DNA of 16,612 nt from positions 1 through 16,612 of IMG/VR virus record IMGVR_UViG_2778261179_000013; one strand, written 5' to 3'. The notes beneath the pieces were generated by a model. That model was not told where the DNA came from and made no database searches. It saw only the letters and a list, made by a program, of their open reading frames with translations. Below, in pieces: positions 947 to 16,612 of the stretch (its first letter is position 1; every line of letters starts with the position of its first letter). Source of the stretch: a virus. Taxonomy: Duplodnaviria > Heunggongvirae > Uroviricota > Caudoviricetes. Both the position numbers and the translations under genes were made by a program.

Positions 947-970
947 AATCAAGCATTTAGCTAACCTGAA

Positions 971-988
971 TTAGTTCATGCCGTACTG
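971..988 (-). other. fis 3'-end remnant (encodes YGMN-stop) and putative att core / island junction
   Basis: The minus strand reads cag tac ggc atg aac taa = Q-Y-G-M-N-stop (stop at 971-973). Fis ends ...KKYGMN. The frame is broken one codon further upstream (tga at 989-991) and there is no fis-sized ORF in 892-1155, so only the last codons are present. Confidence 0.45.
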
Positions 989-1115: not shown

Positions 1116-1137
1116 TGTATAAACATTTGTATAAACA
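1116..1137 (+). promoter_or_regulatory. Direct repeat TGTATAAACA x2 about 20 bp upstream of int; candidate promoter or recombinase/IHF-type site
   Basis: tgtataaaca at 1116-1125 and 1128-1137, within an AT-rich leader; a related tgtataaa lies near 1049. Confidence 0.3.
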
Positions 1138-1155: not shown

Positions 1156-2379
1156 ATGGCTGGCGAACTTAACAAACTGAGCGACAGGAAGTTAAAGGGA
1201 TTACATGGTATCCCGGCCAGTAAGATTGAGTTCTATGCTGATGGTGCCGGGCTGAGCGCCAAGGTAACTAAAGTTGGTGGTATTAGCTGGGTGTTTACTT
1301 ACCGACTCGACGGGCAGAAGCTGCATCGTCTTACTCTGGGACGATACCCGGATATGAGCCTCAAAGAGGCCCGTTCTTCGCGTGATAAATGCCGCCAATG
1401 GCTGGCCTCAGGTAAAGATCCAAAGCACCAGTTGGCGCTGACCACTCAGGAAACGCTTAAACCGGTCACTGTTAAGGAAGCTATCGAATACTGGATACGC
1501 GAATATGCAGAAGAGAACCGCGCGAATGTTGAAAGGCACAAAGCGGAGCTGCGTAAACACATTTATCCTTATATTGGGAAAATGGCGCTCGCTGACTGCG
1601 AAACCCGTTATTGGCTTGACTGCTTTGACAGGATGAAAAAGAAAACGCCAGTTGCTGCGGGTTATGTGTTCCAGATGTGCAAGCAAGCCCTGAAATTCTG
1701 CCGGGTTCGTCGCTATGCTGTGAGTACCGCGCTGGAAGATTTAACAATTCCAGATGTCGGTAAAAAACAGGCAAAAAAAGACCGGGTATTAAACGATAAA
1801 GAGGCTGGCGATTTATGGGCTGCCATTACCTCTGGAACTTGCTTCATGCCTTACTACACCAGGCTACTGACAATCTTAATGGTGTTTGGGTGCCGAACGC
1901 AGGAGGCCAGACTGTCAGAATGGAGTGAATGGGATATGGATGCCTGGGTCTGGACAGTTCCCAAAGAGCACAGCAAGGGCGGCGAGAAGATTGTAAGACC
2001 TGTGCCGGATGCCATGCGCAAATTCATTGAAATACTGCATGATGAAACGAAATTATCCGGCCTTTTGCTTGGGTCGGTTAAAGGCAGTGAAGCGGTAAGT
2101 CAGTGGGGCCGCGGTGTTTATAAAAAGCTGGGGCATTCTGAACCATGGACACTGCACGATCTAAGACGAACTTTAGCAACGCATATGAATAATATGGGTA
2201 TAGCACCACACGTTGTCGAACAGTTGTTGGGGCACTCAATGCCGGGAGTTATGGCGATTTATAACCGTAGTCTGTACTTGCCTGAGAAACTGGATGCGTT
2301 GAATAAATGGTATGACCGTCTCGATATTTTGGCGGGTAATCACTCGAATATTGTTATTTTAAAGGCTGGTGAGAAATGA
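1156..2379 (+). CDS. int: Tyrosine recombinase, P4-type phage integrase
   Basis: 407 aa. N-terminal arm-binding-type region (GLSAKVTKVGGISWVFTYRLDGQKLHRLTLGRYP), catalytic region with HDLRRTLATHM (HxxR) and the LGHSMPGVMAIYNRSLY tyrosine motif. Confidence 0.95.
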   Translation: MAGELNKLSDRKLKGLHGIPASKIEFYADGAGLSAKVTKVGGISWVFTYRLDGQKLHRLTLGRYPDMSLKEARSSRDKCRQWLASGKDPKHQLALTTQETLKPVTVKEAIEYWIREYAEENRANVERHKAELRKHIYPYIGKMALADCETRYWLDCFDRMKKKTPVAAGYVFQMCKQALKFCRVRRYAVSTALEDLTIPDVGKKQAKKDRVLNDKEAGDLWAAITSGTCFMPYYTRLLTILMVFGCRTQEARLSEWSEWDMDAWVWTVPKEHSKGGEKIVRPVPDAMRKFIEILHDETKLSGLLLGSVKGSEAVSQWGRGVYKKLGHSEPWTLHDLRRTLATHMNNMGIAPHVVEQLLGHSMPGVMAIYNRSLYLPEKLDALNKWYDRLDILAGNHSNIVILKAGEK

Positions 2380-2678
2380 AAAAGATAAATAAAATGACCG
2401 AATTACCGAAATGGTTTTCATTGGACAATTACAATTCTATCAATGGGCTGAGTGATCTTGATTTAATTAATCAGTTAGCTATGAGAATGGAAGTTGCTAA
2501 TGATGATTTTGAATGGCTTGATACCTATCCCGGAGCAAGAAATGAGTTCGCTTCATTTATGGAAGAAAGATTTAGTAACCCAATTCGGCCACTGAGCGGA
2601 AAATTATTTGCAGAAAAAATAAAAAGAAAAAATATTCTGAATGGCAAATGGATTCCGTCGGAGGTGTTGAGCCTTTAA
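2376..2678 (+). CDS. Hypothetical protein (AT-rich cargo ORF)
   Basis: 100-aa ORF whose ATG overlaps the int stop (ATGA at 2376-2379). Markedly AT-rich compared with the flanking genes. No motif recognised. Confidence 0.4.
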   Translation: MKKINKMTELPKWFSLDNYNSINGLSDLDLINQLAMRMEVANDDFEWLDTYPGARNEFASFMEERFSNPIRPLSGKLFAEKIKRKNILNGKWIPSEVLSL

Positions 2679-3163
2679 GATTAATTGATGTGATGCAGTT
2701 GTCTAAGAAAGCCGCTCATTATATTGATGAAAATAAAATTAATCGCTCATTGCGTGGACAAAAAAGGTCTGTAAGTAAGACCATAAGCGATAATGATCAA
2801 ATGCATATTACTTTAGATTTGTCTTGGCCTGATGAAATTTTATTAAGCGATTTGGCTGCATTGTTGCCAATATGGCGAATGGATCTTGAAAGGAAAAGTG
2901 AAAATAGTTGTAAGTTAAGTAATAGCTGGAGTGTAATCAAAAAGAAAATATTCGATTGCAAGATATTGCCAATGTTAGACCTTATGGAGTGGGCTAAAAT
3001 TAACAATGCAACAATCACTAACAGAGTTTTATCTTTAGCCCTGTTTCCTAATGCAGAGTATGACGCCATTGGTATCGCTCAAACGATCAAACCGTTCATT
3101 AGAAATTTTTCCGCAGATTTTTCTATAGAAATATTAAAGCGCAAAGCTATGGATTCATTTTAA
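2648..3163 (+). CDS. Hypothetical protein (AT-rich cargo ORF); start uncertain (alternative ATG at 2693)
   Basis: 171-aa ORF in a different frame, overlapping the previous ORF by 31 nt just after an A-rich run (2606-2632). Either a separate gene or the distal half of a frameshifted gene. No motif recognised. Confidence 0.45.
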   Translation: MDSVGGVEPLRLIDVMQLSKKAAHYIDENKINRSLRGQKRSVSKTISDNDQMHITLDLSWPDEILLSDLAALLPIWRMDLERKSENSCKLSNSWSVIKKKIFDCKILPMLDLMEWAKINNATITNRVLSLALFPNAEYDAIGIAQTIKPFIRNFSADFSIEILKRKAMDSF

Positions 3164-3571: not shown

Positions 3572-4378
3572 ATGGAAAAAATAACTGCCTTGGCTGGCAG
3601 CGGCCAAACTCACCCCGAAACCAGCCAGAAAGATATTTCCAGCGATAATTTTGCTGCCCGGATCCCTGTAACCATGAGCACTATTGGTGGGAAAGAAACT
3701 CAGTCTGTAAGTGGTCGTAAGCTGCATACGTTTCTAGCTGTAGGGCGAGACTTTACCACCTGGATGAAAGCACGCATCAAACAGTATGGGTTTGTTAAAG
3801 GGGTTGATTATGTAATTGTTGAAGATTTGAGCACCCCAAAACGGGGGAGCGCAAAATCTCGCCAACAAGTCGAGCACGATTACATTGTCAGCCTGAATAT
3901 GGCTAAAGAGCTTTCTATGGTTGAGCGCAACGCGCAAGGCAAGATGGCCCGCCAGTATTTCATCGACTGTGAAGAACGTCTGCGCCGCGTAGCACCAGAG
4001 GAACATGAGGCGGCGTTGTTGGGCTGGCGTAAAAATCGTGTAGCTGCCTGCGAAGATCATAAGAGTATGGCCGATGCAATGAAGGGCTATATCGAGCGCA
4101 CCGGCGACAGGCAGCACGGCTTTGCCTACAGCAATGAATGCTCGTTCCTGAATAGCCTTGTGCTGGGTATGCACCCGCGAGTGTGGGCGAAACAGAAAGA
4201 AATTCCAGTTAAGCTGGTGCGTGACCATATGAACGCCGATCAGCTGGCGCTGCTGGCTTATCTGGAAAGCCGTGATTGTGCTCTGCTGGATCTTGATACC
4301 CGTACGGCAACCCGTAAGGCGAAACTCACCGAACTGGCACAACGCTGGCTGGTTAAGCGTGTTGGAGGTGCTGAGTGA
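3572..4378 (+). CDS. Phage antirepressor-like protein (AntA-type N-terminal domain)
   Basis: 268 aa. SGRKLHTFLAVGRDFTTWMKARIKQYGFVKGVDYVIV resembles the AntA/AntB antirepressor N-terminal motif (sARdLH.fL ... F..W ... ygF.eg.Dy). The C-terminal half is unassigned. Confidence 0.55.
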   Translation: MEKITALAGSGQTHPETSQKDISSDNFAARIPVTMSTIGGKETQSVSGRKLHTFLAVGRDFTTWMKARIKQYGFVKGVDYVIVEDLSTPKRGSAKSRQQVEHDYIVSLNMAKELSMVERNAQGKMARQYFIDCEERLRRVAPEEHEAALLGWRKNRVAACEDHKSMADAMKGYIERTGDRQHGFAYSNECSFLNSLVLGMHPRVWAKQKEIPVKLVRDHMNADQLALLAYLESRDCALLDLDTRTATRKAKLTELAQRWLVKRVGGAE

Positions 4379-4708
4379 TTTTGCATAACTCAATCAGGGT
4401 TGCGCAGAATTTGAGCCGACGAAATTCGCACGCGCAAATCAAGCTCGGTGATATGCCGAGTTTGAACAACCGCGTACTTTTAACGTACGGACATAGCAAC
4501 CCATTGAATCATCTTAATTATCGCGAAATGCGAGAATTGGCGAGCAACGAACACGAACAGTATTCGGGTTCGCCTGAACATCAACACTGCTTAGGTTCAG
4601 AGGTTCCGACGAATAACGTAGAGAGCTGCAATGGCAGCGCATTTTTGCTCTACGAGGGAAATCAACAACGTACAGTTTTGTACCGTAATCCAGATTTGGC
4701 TTACGAGA

Positions 4709-4768
4709 GGGTAGTACCTCAAAGTCACGAGGTTAACAGGGTAGTAACTCATAGTTACCAGGTTAACC
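4709..4768. repeat. Tandem direct repeat, 2 x 30 bp (25/30 identical), each unit containing GTTAAC
   Basis: gggtagtacctcaaagtcacgaggttaaca (4709-4738) and gggtagtaactcatagttaccaggttaacc (4739-4768). The units carry different internal stems (ACCTC/GAGGT in unit 1, GTAACT/AGTTAC in unit 2). Confidence 0.8.
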
Positions 4769-4877
4769 GCGTCGCTAAAAGATACGCGGAAAGCAAGACC
4801 TCTTTAAGAGGGGCAGTTCAGTGCGTGGAGACCTACGAAATTTTCGTAGGTCACAGCATTACCGAGAGTAACCCTGT

Positions 4878-5063
4878 TCAGCTTTCAGATTCCGATCTGG
4901 CTTTCTTGCGTTGGCGGCGTTTGATCTCGCATTGCATGGCTGTAACGATAAATTGGGCAGTGCTTTCGCCTTGCTCTTTAACTTGTTCCATTGCCTCGAC
5001 AACTTCATGCGGGGCACGAGTTTGCAATTTTTGTGATTTTTCGTTCTTTGTTCCCGTCGCCAT
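4878..5063 (-). CDS. Ribbon-helix-helix (Arc/CopG/MetJ-like) transcriptional regulator, probable island repressor
   Basis: 61 aa from the ATG at 5061-5063 (minus), preceded by AGGAGA with a 7-nt spacer. QKLQTRAP-HEVVEAMEQVKEQ-GES-TAQFIVTAMQCEI fits the RHH beta-strand / helix A / G-x-S turn / helix B pattern. The supplied ORF track starts it at a TTG at 5084. Confidence 0.65.
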   Translation of the reverse strand: MATGTKNEKSQKLQTRAPHEVVEAMEQVKEQGESTAQFIVTAMQCEIKRRQRKKARSESES

Positions 5064-5081
5064 TACTAAGTCTCCTGATAT

Positions 5082-5190
5082 CAAGTGGAGTACAGAATAC
5101 CAGAAAAATAATGAAATAAAACACTTGAAGTGGATTCCACTTTGTATTTATAGTGGAGTCCACCTTGAAGGGGTTCACCTTCAAGATATA
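5082..5190. promoter_or_regulatory. Divergent promoter/operator region with interleaved inverted repeats (half-sites AAGTGGA / TCCACTT and CACTT / AAGTG)
   Basis: cacttgaagtg (5122-5132) and aagtgga-t-tccactt (5128-5142) are overlapping palindromes; agtggagtccac (5152-5163) and ccttgaagg plus caccttcaag (5161-5185) follow. The region lies between the RHH gene and the rightward operon. Confidence 0.55.
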
Positions 5191-5261
5191 GCGAAGCCCG
5201 GCAGTGCGCGAACACTAACCGGGCCTCTGACCACCAAGATAGTTAACGTATCGAGGCAGCT

Positions 5262-5450
5262 ATGAAAGATTATATCACACACCCGCAAGGGCGGAAGTCC
5301 TACACCTGGCGTTTTCTGGCGCTGAGCGCCATCGGTCGCAACGTCATTCACATCAAAGCTACCACCGAACGCGAAGCCCGTGAGCAATCACCGGCTGGCT
5401 GCGTGATGGTATTCGCTGGCCGTCTGCCTGTGGAGGTGCGCCATGCGTGA
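5262..5450 (+). CDS. Hypothetical small protein (first gene of the rightward replication operon)
   Basis: 62-aa ORF with GAGG 5 nt upstream of the ATG; overlaps the next ORF. Confidence 0.5.
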   Translation: MKDYITHPQGRKSYTWRFLALSAIGRNVIHIKATTEREAREQSPAGCVMVFAGRLPVEVRHA

Positions 5451-5852: not shown

Positions 5853-7605
5853 CGTGAAAACCCTCCCACGCGACAAAATGGAGGAGGCCATCATCTTTGC
5901 CGGAACAGGAGCATGGAAAGCAGCTCAGGATTACCAGAAAGGTAAAGATGAGCATGGCGATGAGGTGCCGCCGGTTGTTCTGGATCATACCCAGCTGGCG
6001 GAATTACCCCACCTGCGCATTGTTGATAAAGGACGCCGATTTGCCCGTGTCTGTCAGGCCGGACTTATCGAACAAAACCAAATCAGTATGATTGCCAATA
6101 AGTTGTGTGAGGCTGGCGTTACCAATGCTGAGTTTATCAACGAAAAAGGTGAGAAAGAGGACTGGACGCCATTAATGAAGCGTCTGGAAGACGAGCCCCT
6201 AATGGTGACTACGAGGGGTAGCGCTACGCCAGCGCTTAACCAGATGGGAGCCAGCCAGCGCGGGGAAGTTCTGCTTGCTCATTACGATGGCAATCTGGCG
6301 ATCCATGCTGATTCCGACACGGTTCATCATTACAACGGCGTGGTGTGGGTTCCGCTTTCGGATAAAGAGCTGCAGCGAGAAATGGCGCAAATTTTTATTG
6401 ATGCCGAAGTCGCCTATTCGCAGAACGCGATTAAATCCGCTGTCGATACAATGAAGCTGGGTCTGCCAGTGATGGGTAACACAGCCCGAAATCTTATTGG
6501 TTTCAGCAACGGGGTTTTTGATACCCGGTTAGGGCAATTTCGACCACATGATAAAAAGGACTGGCTTATCGTTGCGAGCGAATTGCCATTCAGCGAACCA
6601 GCAGAAGGAGAGACTCTGGCAACCCATGCGCCGAACTTCTGGAAATGGCTCCGCCGCTCTGTGGCGGATAATGACAGAAAATCAGACCGCGTACTGTCTG
6701 CTCTGTTCATGGTGCTGGCGAACCGGTACGACTGGCAGCTGTTTCTTGAGGTAACGGGGCCGGGCGGAAGTGGTAAAAGTGTTATGGCTGAGATCTGCAC
6801 GATGCTGGCCGGCAAAGCCAATACGGTATCGGCAAGCATGGCGGCGCTGGAGAACCCAAGGGAAAGGGCGCTGGTGGTTGGCTATTCGCTGATTATCATG
6901 CCGGATATGACCCGGTACGCTGGCGACGGCGCAGGGATTAAAGCTATCACTGGCGGGGATAAGGTAGCTATCGACCCTAAACACAAAGCGCCGTATTCAA
7001 CGCGTATTCCGGCAGTGGTGCTGGCCGTCAATAACAATGCCATGTCATTCAGCGACCGAAGCGGTGGTATTTCGCGTCGTCGGGTTATTTTTAACTTCTC
7101 AGAGGTGGTACCGGAAAACGAACGTGATCCTATGCTTGCCGAGAAGATTGAAGGTGAGCTGGCCGTTATCATTCGCCACCTGCTTACTCGCTTTTCCAGA
7201 CAGGACGAGGCCAAACAGCTTTTGCATGAGCAGCAGAAATCAGAAGAGGCGCTGGCCATCAAACGTGAAGGGGATTCACTGGTGGACTTTTGCGGCTACC
7301 TGATGGCTTCGGTCGTATGTGATGGCATGTTTATCGGGAACGCCGAGATCGTACCGTTCAGCCCGCGCCGTTATCTGTATCACGCTTATCTGGCTTATAT
7401 GCGGGCTAACGGCCTGAGCAAGCCGGTGTCGCTGATGAGGTTCGGCACGGATATGCCAGGCGCAATGGCTGAATATGGCAAGGAGTACCAGAAGCGCAAA
7501 ACAAAACATGGCATAAGATCAAACGTCACACTTCACGACGATTCAGAAGACTGGATGCCTATGTGGAATGATACTTCTCACAATACCGGAGAAAATCAAA
7601 AGTAA
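5836..7605 (+). CDS. Replication initiator / SF3 helicase of the P4 alpha (D5-like) family (PICI pri-rep-like)
   Basis: 589 aa. Walker A VTGPGGSGKS, a Walker B-like LIIMPDMT region, and a D5_N-like segment (IGFSNGVFDTRLGQFRPHDKKDW). GTG start at 5836 is preceded by GGGAGG with a 7-nt spacer. No EGYATA-type primase motif seen in the N-terminal ~300 aa. Confidence 0.85.
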   Translation: MKNAPNVKTLPRDKMEEAIIFAGTGAWKAAQDYQKGKDEHGDEVPPVVLDHTQLAELPHLRIVDKGRRFARVCQAGLIEQNQISMIANKLCEAGVTNAEFINEKGEKEDWTPLMKRLEDEPLMVTTRGSATPALNQMGASQRGEVLLAHYDGNLAIHADSDTVHHYNGVVWVPLSDKELQREMAQIFIDAEVAYSQNAIKSAVDTMKLGLPVMGNTARNLIGFSNGVFDTRLGQFRPHDKKDWLIVASELPFSEPAEGETLATHAPNFWKWLRRSVADNDRKSDRVLSALFMVLANRYDWQLFLEVTGPGGSGKSVMAEICTMLAGKANTVSASMAALENPRERALVVGYSLIIMPDMTRYAGDGAGIKAITGGDKVAIDPKHKAPYSTRIPAVVLAVNNNAMSFSDRSGGISRRRVIFNFSEVVPENERDPMLAEKIEGELAVIIRHLLTRFSRQDEAKQLLHEQQKSEEALAIKREGDSLVDFCGYLMASVVCDGMFIGNAEIVPFSPRRYLYHAYLAYMRANGLSKPVSLMRFGTDMPGAMAEYGKEYQKRKTKHGIRSNVTLHDDSEDWMPMWNDTSHNTGENQK

Positions 7606-7860
7606 TGGGAAAAGTGTTCACCACTATTCACTGTGGATAAAATCGTTTATATAACAGATATTTAAGGGGTGAACACTTTTTATTGAAGTGTTCACCAAGT
7701 ATTCACCTGTTCACCTTTAAAGGGCTTTTCTTTTAAAAGGTGAAGGGTTAGGGTGAACACTAGTGAATACTTAAAATTATAGTCTTCACCCTGTAACCAT
7801 ATGAATTTGAATGGAAAAAATGCAAAGGTGAACAGGTGAACACTTAAACGCATATTTTTT
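7606..7860. repeat. Iteron array and AT-rich tract; putative origin of replication (P4 ori/crr-like)
   Basis: At least 10 copies of GGTGAACA(CTT) or its reverse complement (AAG)TGTTCACC, e.g. 7612-7622, 7668-7678, 7686-7696, 7709-7716, 7751-7760, 7826-7833, 7834-7844, plus variants (tattcacc, gtgaatac, cttcacc), followed by T-rich runs at 7852-7866. Placement immediately 3' of the replication gene is typical for these satellites. Confidence 0.75.
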
Positions 7861-7878
7861 ATTTTTACGAGGCTGCAT

Positions 7879-8223
7879 ATGGAAATTTTAGGCAACCATA
7901 ACGACAAGTTTCACGGCATCAAATTTCTGCATAGTGCAATTGAAGAAATGAATGAGAAAGCTGAAGTAACTCTGACCGACTATCTGGCTCTTAGGGCTTT
8001 TGTTCTGGCTGAGCGAAGAGAAACTCAGGACTACATTGATGCAATGGATGAAACGTATGCTGATTTGCCCGATGATCTGCGTTCTTACATTGAGCTTCTT
8101 AATGACGTTGCCGCACAGCTATCAAATCCATCACGCTCAAATGGGAATTTAAAATCAATTATTTACGATGCGAGAATATCAAGCGGAAACGCCATGTCTC
8201 ACTGGTTCAGTGTTGATAGATAG
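7879..8223 (+). CDS. Hypothetical protein (AT-rich cargo, gene 1 of a two-gene cassette)
   Basis: 114-aa ORF with ACGAGG 6 nt upstream of the ATG. Acidic and predicted helical; no motif recognised. Compositionally distinct from the flanking replication and head genes. Confidence 0.55.
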   Translation: MEILGNHNDKFHGIKFLHSAIEEMNEKAEVTLTDYLALRAFVLAERRETQDYIDAMDETYADLPDDLRSYIELLNDVAAQLSNPSRSNGNLKSIIYDARISSGNAMSHWFSVDR

Positions 8224-8246
8224 TAAAATCTAAGAAGGGATAACTA

Positions 8247-9092
8247 ATGCGTACTAATGATGATTTACAGATAATCCGAAAGCATCTGGATGGTGAATTT
8301 GAACAGCGCCTGTTAGACGCTGCGATCAATAACCTTTTGGATGAAAATAATCAGCTTCGGTTCAGCAATTATGCCTATGCACTTAGAGAGCTATTCTTAC
8401 ACGTTCTAAAACGCATGGCACCTGATGAAAATGTTCAACTATGCGAGTGGTTTCCTGGTTTGAATGAAAGAGAGCAGGTTGCAAGAAAAGACTCTTACAA
8501 ATATATCATTCATGGTGGGTTAAGTGATGAATATGTCAGGGATGTACTTGATGTAAATATTGCCGGAGTAATTCCGGGATTGCGTGATGCGTTCTACTCA
8601 TTAAATAAATTTACTCACATAAGCGAAAAGATTTTTCCAATTAATGATGACGATGGCCTAAAAATGGTGGGAGAGGTTGAAGGTTGCATCGGAGCTCTTT
8701 TCACCAAGCTTGATGAGTGTCATAAGGAGATAATTAATAAGCTTTATGAAGCTGTGAGTGAGGCCGCGATACATAGTTCGATAACTGAAACTGTAACATC
8801 AATTGATATTTTATCGACACACAGCTCGGTTGATGAAGTGTATGTTGATGATGTGAAAATAGTAGAAATAAATGACTCTGAAGTAATTTTCTCTGTTAGT
8901 GGCTCTGTAGGTGTCGGGTTGCAATGGGGATCTAATTCCGATTTGCGAAATGACATAGGTGCTGTAGGTAGAGAAACATTCCCATTTACCTGCGAGGTGA
9001 GAAGTCCAGTGTATGCCCCTGAACGTTTAGAGTGTGATGAAGGGGCATTCCATGCAGATACTTCAAGTTGGTGGGAAGGATATTACGACTAA
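8247..9092 (+). CDS. Hypothetical protein (AT-rich cargo, gene 2 of a two-gene cassette)
   Basis: 281-aa ORF with AAGAAGGGA upstream of the ATG. Helical N-terminal region containing an R-x4-H motif (RELFLH) and a beta-rich C-terminal region. Followed by an intrinsic terminator. Confidence 0.6.
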   Translation: MRTNDDLQIIRKHLDGEFEQRLLDAAINNLLDENNQLRFSNYAYALRELFLHVLKRMAPDENVQLCEWFPGLNEREQVARKDSYKYIIHGGLSDEYVRDVLDVNIAGVIPGLRDAFYSLNKFTHISEKIFPINDDDGLKMVGEVEGCIGALFTKLDECHKEIINKLYEAVSEAAIHSSITETVTSIDILSTHSSVDEVYVDDVKIVEINDSEVIFSVSGSVGVGLQWGSNSDLRNDIGAVGRETFPFTCEVRSPVYAPERLECDEGAFHADTSSWWEGYYD

Positions 9093-9128
9093 CAAGTGTA
9101 AATTATTCGTCCTCGCGTTTATTAGTGC

Positions 9129-9160
9129 TTAGCCCGATAAAATTCGGGCTTTTATTTATT
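9129..9160 (+). terminator. Rho-independent terminator after the cargo cassette
   Basis: Stem agcccg (9131-9136) / cgggct (9145-9150) with an 8-nt loop, followed by tttatttatt (9151-9160). Confidence 0.6.
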
Positions 9161-9324
9161 ATTTTCATGTATATGTTGAGAAGTGGCACTCAGACGTGAG
9201 CCGCCACTGGCCGTTAAATCAAGCTGTAGCGAGTACAGCCTGTGGGATGCAGAAAAAGATTTAACGGCCTCCCCTCCAAGCGCTGGTTTCACGTCTCTAC
9301 GTTAATTGATACGGAAACCACTCC

Positions 9325-13680: not shown

Positions 13681-14037
13681 ATGGCAAGACCACCCAAACC
13701 GCCAGCTTACCTTGATGAGTTAGCTGCGCAGCAGTGGAAAGCGAAGGCGAAGCAACTGGCGGAGCGCGGGGATTTGACTCCCGCCGACTGGAACAACCTT
13801 GAGCTTTTTTGCGTCAACTATTCGATGTACCGCAAAGCCGTGGAAGACCTTGCCAGCCGTGGGTTCAGCATTGTTAACAGCCAGGGCGGTGAGAGCCGAA
13901 ATCCGGCGCTGAGCGCAAAGGCCGATGCTGAAAAAATCATGATTAAAATGTCGTCGCTGCTGGGCTTTGATCCGGTAAGCCGCCGCCGGAACCCGGTGGA
14001 AACGGAGGAGGAAGACGAGCTTGACCGTCTGGAATGA
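13681..14037 (+). CDS. terS: Terminase small subunit (P27-family-like)
   Basis: 118 aa from the ATG at 13681: MARPPKPPAYLDELAAQQWKAKAKQLAERGDLTPADWNNLELFCVNYSMYRKA ... The track ORF from 13513 adds an implausible Gly-rich N-terminal extension, so the internal ATG is preferred. Confidence 0.8.
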   Translation: MARPPKPPAYLDELAAQQWKAKAKQLAERGDLTPADWNNLELFCVNYSMYRKAVEDLASRGFSIVNSQGGESRNPALSAKADAEKIMIKMSSLLGFDPVSRRRNPVETEEEDELDRLE

Positions 14038-15682
14038 GTACGCAAACGCGATAAAAACGGGCGAAATTCCGGCCTGTAAGCGCGTAAAACAGGCCGTGGA
14101 AAGGTACTTTTCAGACCTGAATGACCCCCGTTATGTGTTCGATACGGCGACCGTAGAGCGGTTTATTGCGTTCTCGCGGCTCTGTCCTCACGTCAAAGGC
14201 CCGTTGCGCGGGCAGTCTATCGAGCTGGAGCCGTGGCAGCAGTTCGCCTTTGCTAACCTGCTGGGCTTTAAAGTCAGGGAGTCAGGCCGCCGGAAGTATA
14301 GCAGCGCCTTTATTGAGGTGCCGCGCAAGAATGCCAAATCCACCGTGGCCGCCATGCTGGCTAACTGGTTTCTGGTGATGGAGAAGGGCCAGCAGGATAT
14401 CTACACGGCGGCGGTAAGCCGGGATCAGGCCCGAATCGTGTTCGACGATGCCCGCCAGATGTGCCTGCTGTCAAAACCGCTGAAAAAGCGCGTCAGTATT
14501 CAGGCACACAAGGTCATTTTCCCGAAGAGCAACAGCCTGTTAAAGCCGCTGGCGGCAAAAGCGGCCACCATTGAAGGGACTAACCCCAGCCTGGCGATTG
14601 TCGATGAGTACCACCTTCACCCGGATAACGGCGTTTATTCCGCGCTTGAGCTGGGTATGGGCGCCCGTCCTGAGGCAATTTTGTTCGCCATCACTACCGC
14701 CGGGAGTAACGTAGTCTCGGCCTGTAAGCAGCATTATGACTACTGCTGCCAGATTCTGGCAGGGGAAGAGAGCAACGATTCTCTGTTTGTCCTGATATAC
14801 GAGCTGGACGACGAAATTGAGGTTGAGCAGCCGGAAATGTGGATTAAGGCCAACCCTAACCTGCATGTGTCTGTTGACGCAGCGAAGCTGGAATCCACCA
14901 TCCAGAAAGCGCGGGGGATACCGTCGCAATGGGTGGAAATGCTCACCAAACGTTTCAATATCTGGTGTCAGGGCTCCACGCCGTGGATGGGGGCTGGCGC
15001 GTGGGATGCCTGTGCACTCGACTATAACGAAGAAGAGCTGGTCGGAATGGAGTGTTATGCCGGGTTTGACCTGTCCTCAACCAGCGATATCACCAGCGTG
15101 AGTTACGCTTTCCCGTTTGACAGGGAGATCCGGCTTCTGACCCGCCACTATCTACCGGAAGCGCAACTGCTTAACGTCGCCAACAAAAACCGCGCCATCT
15201 ATCGCCAGTGGGTAAAAACGGGCTGGATACGCACCACACCCGGCGACTGTATCGACTATGACCGCATTCGTGACGATATCCTGCGCGATGCTGAAACCTT
15301 CAATATTCGGCTGGTGGGCTTTGATACGTGGAACGCTACGCATCTGCGCACCCAGCTACAGGGTGCGGGCCTTGATGTTGAGCCATTCCCGCAAACCTAT
15401 CTCAGGTTCAGTCCGGTAGCGAAATCCTTTGAAGTGTTTGTTAACCGCAGGGTAGTGCGCCATCGCGGTGATCCGGTTCTGGCCTGGGCGATTGGTAACG
15501 TGGTGATGGAGTCCGACGCCAATGCCAACATCAAGCCCAACAAAAAGAAATCCTCCAACAAGATAGATCCGGCTGTGTCTGCGTTAATGGCGTTTGGCAC
15601 CTTCCAGGCTGAGCACGAGGATTTTGCATTTGATATGAGTGACAGTCACAAACAACGGCTAGCTGATTTCAATGGGCTTTGA
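14021..15682 (+). CDS. terL: Terminase large subunit
   Basis: 553 aa. Walker A-like EVPRKNAKST, Walker B-like LAIVDEYH and a C-terminal nuclease-type region. Apparent TTG start at 14021 overlapping the terS end, so the start codon is uncertain. Confidence 0.9.
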   Translation: MTVWNEYANAIKTGEIPACKRVKQAVERYFSDLNDPRYVFDTATVERFIAFSRLCPHVKGPLRGQSIELEPWQQFAFANLLGFKVRESGRRKYSSAFIEVPRKNAKSTVAAMLANWFLVMEKGQQDIYTAAVSRDQARIVFDDARQMCLLSKPLKKRVSIQAHKVIFPKSNSLLKPLAAKAATIEGTNPSLAIVDEYHLHPDNGVYSALELGMGARPEAILFAITTAGSNVVSACKQHYDYCCQILAGEESNDSLFVLIYELDDEIEVEQPEMWIKANPNLHVSVDAAKLESTIQKARGIPSQWVEMLTKRFNIWCQGSTPWMGAGAWDACALDYNEEELVGMECYAGFDLSSTSDITSVSYAFPFDREIRLLTRHYLPEAQLLNVANKNRAIYRQWVKTGWIRTTPGDCIDYDRIRDDILRDAETFNIRLVGFDTWNATHLRTQLQGAGLDVEPFPQTYLRFSPVAKSFEVFVNRRVVRHRGDPVLAWAIGNVVMESDANANIKPNKKKSSNKIDPAVSALMAFGTFQAEHEDFAFDMSDSHKQRLADFNGL

Positions 15683-15718
15683 TAGTGCTTGAACTTTTCA
15701 AATTGTCACTGTAATTCT

Positions 15719-16612
15719 TTAATATTCGACTTGCTGAGCCGGAACGGAGTTTAAAATCCAGCATTCTTGATGGACAAAATTTATATTCAGAGCAGATAAA
15801 TATTGTTGCTCATATGCTCTGTATATTAATAGTTTTGTTTGATTCTGATCATCCAATTCATAATCCGTTTTTGCAGTGCTCCATTGGGAGTGAAGCATTA
15901 CTGATTGAACAAAGGAGTTCATCTTTATACTCATGTTCATTACATTTGAAGATGTTCCGGCATATTTGTATGAGTCGATTACCGTGTTTTTTCCATCGCC
16001 ATCAACATCGAAAGGATTGGATATCCACTTGAATGTATTTAACAAAAAAAGATTGGCGACCCAAGTGTAATCGTTGCCGTTTATATTTTCTGTGGTAGAA
16101 GAGCTAATGCTTTCATGGAGATTGGTTGCCCCCATGAAAATCGCCTCAGGATCTATCTTTCCGTCAGACCTTCGCTGCCTTCCGGCTGCTAAGTAATTGA
16201 AAATGCCAGCATAACACTGCCCCATATATACTATCGCTCTATCTAAATCTGGCGTTGTTTTTATGCGATTAAGTAACCTATAGGGCGGTATTGGTGGGAG
16301 GGCGTCCAATCCATGCATACTTCCATGACCCGTTATAAATATAACTATATTATCATGGGTATTATCGTCGCAATCCGAAAAAAATTCGCTGCTTCTTTTT
16401 ACATTATATTGATGGTTAGTGCCAACTGAGATTAATTTTTGTATATTTCCTCTGTTGTTTCCATCTATATAAATAAAAATATCAGCAGGATTAATTCCAC
16501 GATTTTCTAAGCAGTAAATCCCAAAGGCCAGATCAGAAACATGCCGATCTTCCGGCTCACTGCTGGAAGCCAAAAAAAGAACCCATTTTGTTTTGTCTGC
16601 TAATAGCCCCAT
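15719..16612 (-). CDS. Caspase-like (clan CD, C13/C14-type) peptidase-domain protein; N-terminus at the window edge, possibly partial
   Basis: 297 aa on the minus strand with stop at 15719-15721 and ATG exactly at 16610-16612. Clan CD layout: hydrophobic strand ending in His-Gly (NIVIFITGHG) followed about 38 residues later by a strand ending in the catalytic-type Cys (AIVYMGQCYAG). AT-rich and convergent with terL. Confidence 0.6.
   Translation of the reverse strand: MGLLADKTKWVLFLASSSEPEDRHVSDLAFGIYCLENRGINPADIFIYIDGNNRGNIQKLISVGTNHQYNVKRSSEFFSDCDDNTHDNIVIFITGHGSMHGLDALPPIPPYRLLNRIKTTPDLDRAIVYMGQCYAGIFNYLAAGRQRRSDGKIDPEAIFMGATNLHESISSSTTENINGNDYTWVANLFLLNTFKWISNPFDVDGDGKNTVIDSYKYAGTSSNVMNMSIKMNSFVQSVMLHSQWSTAKTDYELDDQNQTKLLIYRAYEQQYLSALNINFVHQECWILNSVPAQQVEY

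Follow-up and report, generated by a model that had tools for sequence, protein, structure and literature searches.

What is the gene of a predicted clan CD protease doing at the far end of a phage satellite, and does its product act alone? The question is raised by the last gene of a 16,612-nt virus record (IMG/VR IMGVR_UViG_2778261179_000013, Caudoviricetes); this whole stretch is called the window below. In a preliminary description the gene was taken for a caspase-like (clan CD) peptidase, possibly truncated by the window edge and possibly belonging to a defence operon whose partner genes lie beyond it. We found that it forms a strictly conserved cassette with one partner gene, which precedes it. 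The whole chain of reasoning, leading from these two genes to a conflict module that works by proteolysis, in abortive infection or against phages, has in our estimate an even chance of being correct.

The gene itself is complete. The window is 99.9% identical to the corresponding region of Escherichia coli ABW_S38 and 100% identical to it across the protease gene, and RefSeq annotates exactly this 297-aa coding sequence (CDS) there (WP_032174308.1), which removes the suspicion of truncation. All protease homologues share the start M-[G/S]-L. Immediately past the window edge the upstream gene ends in its stop codon, and an AAGGAG site is found there too. In Gamma- and Betaproteobacteria the protein has 272 homologues, about 296 aa long and 50% identical or more, and in a library of 1.84 billion representatives it matches 272 clusters at 50% identity, nearly all of about 300 aa; hence the open reading frame (ORF) is a genuine gene and did not arise by chance. 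Position 15683, from which the gene had been counted, is the first base past the terL stop codon, and the gene ends at 15719. A terminator scan of the spacer between the two genes (15683..15718) yielded nothing convincing. The opposite orientation and the AT-richness described earlier were both observed: the gene is convergent with terL, and its guanine-cytosine (GC) content is 0.38, compared with 0.548 in terL and 0.55 in the packaging block. The coordinates of this and other features are collected in Table 1.

The partner gene predicted beyond the window is present. When the sequence was extended past position 16612 using E. coli ABW_S38 (locus L001), a gene of 100 aa (WP_001213053.1, L001 19237-19539) was found on the same strand, 23 bp upstream of the protease gene, and its GC content (0.383) is low like that of the protease gene. 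Further its product is referred to as A, and the protease as B. A profile of A finds a copy directly upstream of the protease gene in 20/20 informative loci, a count that leaves out one locus cut by a contig end and one degraded copy. The loci come from E. coli, Pseudomonas, Xanthomonas, Bordetella, Burkholderia, Pandoraea, Duganella, Kluyvera, Vibrio and Serratia, among others, and from two metagenome-assembled genomes of Treponema. A gene of 90-100 aa also stands upstream in six far more distant members of the protease family, where it often overlaps the protease start codon. No third conserved gene was found beside the cassette: both the upstream and the downstream neighbours differ in every lineage examined. 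With conservation confined to these two genes, they make up a two-gene cassette.

Single-sequence searches with B gave no match in NCBIfam, PHROGs and Pfam, although for Pfam the threshold was relaxed to E ≤ 10, and the search against PADLOC (PADLOC-DB v2) returned only a chance-level Cas10 match with E 0.02, that is, noise. We built a profile from 35 members of the protease family and searched it against the PDB sequences. All 16 matches are C13 enzymes (legumains, plant asparaginyl endopeptidases and ligases), the best of them with E 0.0037. In the profile alignment the segment K-W...R23-H24...D27 of B corresponds to the legumain segment with Arg44-His45, TGH96G corresponds to His148, and GQC133, to Cys189. 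Peptidase_C13 is the sole Pfam family that recurs among the relatives, its matches being weak (8/35, best E 0.0042), and one distant member (P0270) has a weak precomputed match to the same family.

An AlphaFold2 model of B, constructed on the family alignment, has a predicted local distance difference test score (pLDDT) of 89.6 and a predicted template modelling score of 0.87. It is an alpha/beta/alpha sandwich with a central six-stranded sheet, as in caspases, legumain and gingipain. The motifs named in the preliminary description are indeed those of the predicted dyad: ITGHG comprises residues 93-97 and MGQCYAG residues 130-136, and in VIFITGH96G and AIVYMGQC133 each catalytic residue is preceded by hydrophobic residues and placed at the C-terminal end of adjacent strands, which is the clan CD layout. 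In a Foldseek comparison with the PDB the top 50 matches are all C13 proteins, the best being legumain 4nom (E 4.9e-8); GPI8, butelase, OaAEP1 and VyPAL2 are also among the matches (7wld_K, 7w72_K, 5h0i_B, 6dhi and 7f5q). The profile and structure searches, which had been recommended earlier, thus agree on a caspase/hemoglobinase fold with the dyad aligned to legumain His148/Cys189. Clan CD holds by both fold and dyad, with legumain/GPI8 (C13) and not the caspases proper as the closest family. On the model, then, B is a protease of the caspase/hemoglobinase fold whose closest relative is legumain (family C13).

Conservation was counted over 135 divergent full-length representatives of the protease family. 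Cys133, Gly97 and Gly136 are fully conserved (135/135 each), and high counts were obtained for His96 (131/135), Asp27 (134/135), Asn187 (133/135) and Ser168 (127/135). Arg23 is present in 120/135 and His24 in 100/135, with Phe in 23/135. By these counts the His96/Cys133 dyad is intact and conserved family-wide, and B is predicted to be probably active. In legumain the third catalytic residue is Asn42, and the S1 pocket is formed by Arg44, His45, Ser216, Asp231 and Glu187 (PMC4357240). In B, Ser168 lies on the loop after strand beta5, and Asn187 is a candidate counterpart of Asp231 by position only.

The C-terminal region of about 160 aa, earlier left unassigned, resolves into four parts in the model and the alignment. 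The first (residues 156-198) completes the catalytic core with strand beta5, a hairpin and helix alpha4. It is followed by the 12-residue loop D202-D213, a long two-helix hairpin of about 70 residues (211-278) and a conserved tail Q282-x-x-W-I-L-N/H288. The loop has the EF-hand/dockerin pattern, with acidic residues at positions 1, 3, 5 and 12 and Gly at position 6: D202, D204, D206 and D213 are kept in 132-134/135 and Gly207 in 99/135, and weak Dockerin_1 matches occur in two family members. We regard it as a putative Ca2+-binding loop. Other clan CD families, namely metacaspases and gingipains, are known to depend on Ca2+ (PMC4357240). The tail is modelled with low confidence (pLDDT about 65), and its position 288 is Asn in 91/135 and His in 33/135. 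Autoprocessing of B at its own Asn288 was considered and downgraded because of the His found at this position.

The N-terminus of B leads straight into strand beta1 (E8-14), so that there is no recognisable signal peptide and B is presumably cytoplasmic. Its identity to legumain (MEROPS C13, clan CD) is 12-17%. Legumain is a secretory/vacuolar zymogen activated by acid and carries an LSAM prodomain, which is five-helix and death-domain-like (PMC4357240); B has no LSAM, its C-terminal extension being the two-helix hairpin. Unlike legumain, it is bacterial and mobile, has the EF-hand-like loop, the helical hairpin and the QxxWILN tail, and is accompanied by a dedicated small partner.

The partner A matches phrog_30138, annotated as a family of unknown function, and gave no match in Pfam and PADLOC. 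Its detectable homologues (133) are all stand-alone proteins of about 95 aa. AlphaFold2 folds A into a small alpha/beta domain and leaves the C-terminus disordered (pLDDT 74.6). This C-terminus carries the motif ...F-S-D-x-P-x-P-x-[S/C]-[L/I]-S-N in 120/120 cluster representatives, SLSN being found in 117. Past the motif, every representative continues for a variable 3-13 residues that show no conserved sequence, and in none of the 120 does the protein end with the Asn. Treponema (PKPIVQEN) retains this Asn, as do three more distant pairs (L034, L039 and L040), where the ends read ...FVPN-FNWTE, ...FSPN-FHSGEKS and ...PSIQNN-SAIFKATK. In P. reidholzensis a frameshift in a T-run (L012 9920-9975) hides SLSN, and the restored frame reads FSDIPRPQSLSN-SFP. 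Only in the most divergent pair is the Asn replaced, by Ser. As judged from these alignments, the C-terminal motif of A has the appearance of a site processed by an Asn-specific enzyme.

The element in the window is a capsid-forming phage-inducible chromosomal island (PICI)-type satellite integrated at fis. In the RefSeq annotation of E. coli ABW_S38 it is inserted between yhdJ and fis and encodes an integrase, DUF6387, a helix-turn-helix (HTH) protein, an antirepressor, an Icd-like protein, a primase, the major capsid protein, an S78 prohead protease, portal, head closure and connector proteins, HNH, TerS and TerL. Direct repeats bound the island in two nested pairs, either of which may be the core of the attachment (att) site and one of which may be left over from an earlier insertion. 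One is an exact 20-nt repeat with the left copy just upstream of int and the right copy at L001 19870-19889, between the partner gene and fis; the other is a duplication of the 3' end of fis, whose right copy (L001 19956-19971) overlaps the fis stop codon. Both right copies lie between the cassette and fis, both pairs enclose the cassette, and the cassette is thus inside the island under either att core. The gene is therefore not a chromosomal housekeeping gene outside the att-bounded island, an outcome that would have spoken against the preliminary description. We also compared the occupancy of the slot between terL and fis in related islands at fis. One sibling island has a DUF3892 gene there and another a 'tail assembly protein' gene with a hypothetical gene; hence the slot is variable. 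Being att-bounded and placed in a slot that is filled differently in related elements, the cassette is independently acquired cargo of a capsid-forming PICI-type satellite, as had been proposed. Accessory immune cargo of PICIs and P4-like satellites likewise occupies a variable AT-rich slot at the island end by attR; the cassette differs from the known cargo in matching none of the defence models searched.

This allele of the cassette was found in 1/5,426 complete E. coli genomes and a 61%-identical allele in 9-11, the two together giving a range of 0.02-0.2%. The scan of 100,044 species representatives yielded 14 cassette loci, and a tblastn search of 50,697 phage genomes yielded no cassette copy. 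The cassette is thus rare, horizontally mobile cargo, and it is found at the distal end, in the cargo slot, of two satellite backbones that are unrelated. The 61%-identical cassette (E. coli 90-9280, L035 8039-20269; also L004/L005) is located at the distal end of a different satellite, which carries int, HTH, Icd-like, DUF4222, RepA helicase and HEPN protein genes and a ClpP-capsid fusion. That satellite is inserted in the ClpP-protease/capsid fusion gene of another element, so that the mobile elements are nested. In a sibling island with an identical cassette (L024, 9900-14100) an IS66-family element (TnpA, TnpB and a transposase) is found at the place expected for terL; this island copy is probably immobile, with the cassette kept.

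Elsewhere, the cassette of a Serratia prophage adjoins the integrase and lies among a methylase and a ParE-like gene. In P. aeruginosa it is flanked by a type I restriction-modification (RM) system with Abi_2 and by two reverse-transcriptase (RT) genes, and in P. reidholzensis it directly adjoins a TOTE system. Toxin-antitoxin (TA) genes, insertion sequence elements or integrases are found near it in Burkholderia, Bordetella and a metagenomic contig, and the neighbours in the species sample include Drt8, PD-Lambda-2_B and mad3 matches. In Caballeronia fortuita the protease copy (L019 9932-10821) has lost its N-terminus and is frameshifted, with no detectable partner. This copy and the P. reidholzensis partner gene indicate that some cassette copies are decaying.

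Beyond the fold, the dyad, the cassette and its mobility, which rest on computed results, we infer a link between B and the Asn of A, a control by Ca2+ and a defence phenotype. Legumain-type enzymes cleave after Asn. A would be a dedicated substrate or regulator of B, its P-x-S-L-S-N serving as the P4-P1 recognition site and the disordered variable tail as the leaving group. Asn91 of A is proposed as the P1 residue because the structural relatives of B are Asn-specific, the S1 residues are partly kept and A has the layout of a recognition motif with a leaving group. In the resting state, A would occupy or gate B through the Asn tail, or would be matured by B. Infection, possibly with Ca2+ bound at the DxDxDG...D loop, would trigger cleavage at Asn91. 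The proteolysis so freed would act on host or phage proteins, infection would be aborted or a competitor disabled, and the satellite and the host would gain against competing phages. A defence role is plausible from the genomic context, given that the cassette is found in satellites and a prophage and next to RM/Abi_2/RT, TOTE, Drt8 and PD-Lambda-2 neighbours.

Several observations weigh against this interpretation. PADLOC, PHROGs and NCBIfam give no significant match for the protease, and phrog_30138 is the only family that the partner matches. The gathering threshold of Pfam PF01650 is reached neither by B nor by the weak matches of its relatives. Legumain Asn42 is replaced by Glu21 (Glu in 94/135, Asp in 11/135). 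Other clan CD families have an acidic residue in this third catalytic position. B preserves the S1 pocket only in part, with Gly131 in place of legumain Glu187. Given these two replacements, the sub-threshold Pfam matches and the lack of a signal peptide and of LSAM, strict C13 membership of B is not established. The model of A has no significant fold match in the PDB (best E 0.3), and since its fold matches nothing known, it gives no clue to a toxin or a sensor. In five divergent pairs there is no clean covariation of the protease Arg-His with the partner Asn: the Asn is kept when RH is changed to QY, RF or ID, and Ser is found only in the pair with ED. Finally, many neighbourhoods in the species sample consist of ordinary metabolic genes and defence neighbours do not form the majority, so that the association with defence is suggestive and not statistically established.

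Clan CD proteases are established effectors of bacterial immunity. To our knowledge, all described examples are of the caspase/CHAT type and are coupled to gasdermins, CRISPR, TIR or nucleoside triphosphatase (NTPase) sensors. The bacterial caspase-like and CHAT immune proteases (gasdermin-associated, type III-E Craspase, SAVED-CHAT and caspase-like Thoeris) belong to C14/CHAT, in contrast to the C13-like B. Across the loci inspected, no gasdermin, TIR, SAVED, CRISPR or NTPase sensor genes are adjacent to the cassette, and only the ~95-aa partner is conserved. The legumain family has been studied mainly in eukaryotic lysosomes and vacuoles, in glycosylphosphatidylinositol (GPI) anchoring and in plant peptide ligation. 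We found no description in the full-text literature that ties legumain/C13-like proteins or the cassette accessions to phage defence, PICIs or conflict systems. The sources searched give no functional name for either protein, one UniRef entry being called 'Peptidase C13 family protein'. As far as these searches go, a C13-like enzyme with a minimal Asn-tailed partner looks like an undescribed combination. If the proposed function is true, the cassette adds a legumain-type (C13-like) enzyme to the clan CD immune effectors. Its architecture is minimal, with one small protein bearing an Asn-containing tail, and gives a concrete hypothesis of cleavage or ligation at Asn91, possibly under Ca2+ control. 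The slot between terL and attR of capsid-forming PICI-type satellites is a cargo site worth mining.

The same two genes could instead form a TA-like addiction or stress module, in which A tightly inhibits a toxic protease B and stabilises the mobile element, with no specific anti-phage role. We regard this as rather unlikely. It agrees with the gene order, the small gene being first and the enzyme second, close or overlapping, and with the occurrence of the cassette on mobile elements near other TA genes; moreover, 4n6o, the complex of legumain with cystatin E/M, is among the fold matches of B. Protein inhibitors of legumain present an Asn to S1 as a pseudo-substrate. In the staphopain-staphostatin and legumain-cystatin/macrocypin pairs, too, a cysteine protease is either encoded together with a small protein that binds it in a substrate-like manner or inhibited by one (8ae5 is also among the fold matches); unlike in the legumain inhibitors, the Asn of A belongs to the disordered C-terminal tail rather than to a reactive-centre loop, and A shows no fold similarity to them. 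Neither protein resembles known TA families, and A has no DNA-binding domain for autoregulation. In addition, TA and abortive infection are not mutually exclusive, and this explanation overlaps with the proteolysis-based conflict module.

The fold neighbours of B suggest a further possibility, a legumain-type transpeptidase that tags proteins. B would cut A after Asn91 and join A(1-91) through a thioester to an amine (a Lys side chain or the N-terminus) of a phage or host protein. The GPI8/PIGK transamidase and the ligases butelase-1, OaAEP1 and VyPAL2 belong to the same C13 fold group as B, and at the C-terminus of the substrates of GPI8 and of the plant ligases a dispensable leaving peptide comes after the recognition residue, as it does in A. 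A is a folded domain with an invariant C-terminal motif and an obligatory variable tail of at least 3 residues. A domain with a C-terminal motif and a short tail is the pattern of ligase and sortase substrates and of ubiquitin-like precursors, and in legumains the balance between hydrolysis and ligation shifts to ligation at the neutral pH of the cytoplasm. Nonetheless, tagging is in our opinion unlikely: the model of A does not look like a beta-grasp and has no fold match, no acceptor is known, and the reading rests wholly on analogy. The cassette also differs from the GPI8 transamidase in having no membrane subunits. That the pair might be a previously unknown ATP-independent tagging system in satellite-phage conflict, a sortase/GPI8-like functional analogue of ubiquitin-like conjugation, is a long shot by the same analogy. 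A ligase would be of biotechnological interest, peptide asparaginyl ligases being sought-after tools.

Because the protease gene adjoins the packaging genes in two different satellite backbones, one may also think of a protease of the satellite life cycle that processes virion proteins of the satellite or the helper (capsid or scaffold maturation, helper interference) and has no part in immunity. This is very improbable. The island already has an HK97-type S78 prohead protease, and sibling islands at fis lack the cassette and have other genes in the slot. The cassette is also found in chromosomes of Pseudomonas, Burkholderia, Bordetella and Treponema and in the early region of a prophage, and the protease gene is oriented oppositely to the packaging genes and differs from them in GC content. 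As for a pseudo-protease that has lost its activity, or a housekeeping peptidase of the chromosome, which the sub-threshold Pfam C13 score and the non-conserved counterparts of legumain Asn42 and Glu187 might suggest, we give it almost no credence in view of the essentially invariant dyad and flanking glycines, the sporadic distribution and the location inside the att-bounded island.

Table 1. Positions of the protease gene, its predicted functional elements and the island features in the window
Feature	Position	Strand	Remarks
Legumain-like (clan CD, C13-like) cysteine peptidase, predicted; complete CDS, second gene of the two-gene cassette	15719..16612	-	297 aa, 297 codons; ATG at 16612, stop codon included in the coordinates
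Codons of Glu21-Asp22-Arg23-His24, start of helix alpha1	16541..16552	-	Predicted counterparts of legumain Asn42-Tyr43-Arg44-His45; hidden Markov model alignment, plant and human legumains
Codon of candidate catalytic His96 (TGHG)	16325..16327	-	Profile-aligned to legumain His148; His 131/135
Codon of candidate catalytic Cys133 (GQCYAG)	16214..16216	-	Profile-aligned to legumain Cys189; Cys 135/135
Codons of D202-V-D-G-D-G-K-N-T-V-I-D213, EF-hand/dockerin-like putative Ca2+-binding loop	15974..16009	-	
Codons of C-terminal motif Q282-E-C-W-I-L-N288	15749..15769	-	Q282 120/135, W285 127/135, L287 113/135
Spacer separating the stop codons of the convergent terL and peptidase genes	15683..15718		36 bp
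terL, last gene of the packaging block, left boundary of the cargo slot	14021..15682	+	553 aa; RefSeq; Pfam TerL_ATPase/TerL_nuclease in sibling loci
Left copy of the 20-nt exact direct repeat TGTATAAACATTTGTATAAA, candidate att	1116..1135	+	
Left copy of the duplicated fis 3' end ATTAGTTCATGCCGTA, alternative att core	970..985	+	

The island has a second AT-rich cargo slot (GC 0.36-0.40, positions 7601-9200) between the primase and the capsid genes. A 281-aa protein encoded there (8247-9092, plus strand) contains the 'pPIWI-associating nuclease' domains pP_pnuc_1 (7e-31) and pP_pnuc_2 (1.4e-36) and matches Aga_Nuclease in PADLOC (7e-84). The ORF upstream of it (7879-8223, plus strand, 114 aa) has no matches, and there is no Argonaute gene in the island. 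By its domain matches, the 281-aa protein may be an orphan nuclease associated with prokaryotic Argonautes, that is, separate defence cargo.

Two gene calls in the remaining part of the window deviate from the annotation of E. coli ABW_S38. The DUF6387 gene (2376-3163, plus strand) is split into the ORFs 2376-2678 and 2648-3163 by a 1-nt deletion in a poly-A run around position 2626, the gene being a single 262-aa CDS in E. coli ABW_S38; the deletion may be genuine and shift the frame, or it may be a sequencing error in the homopolymer. At 4375-5265 (plus strand) a GTG-initiated ORF of 296 aa has no family match and is absent from RefSeq, which annotates a 61-aa YlcI/YnfO gene there on the opposite strand (approximately 4879-5064 of the window). 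The 296-aa ORF is probably spurious.

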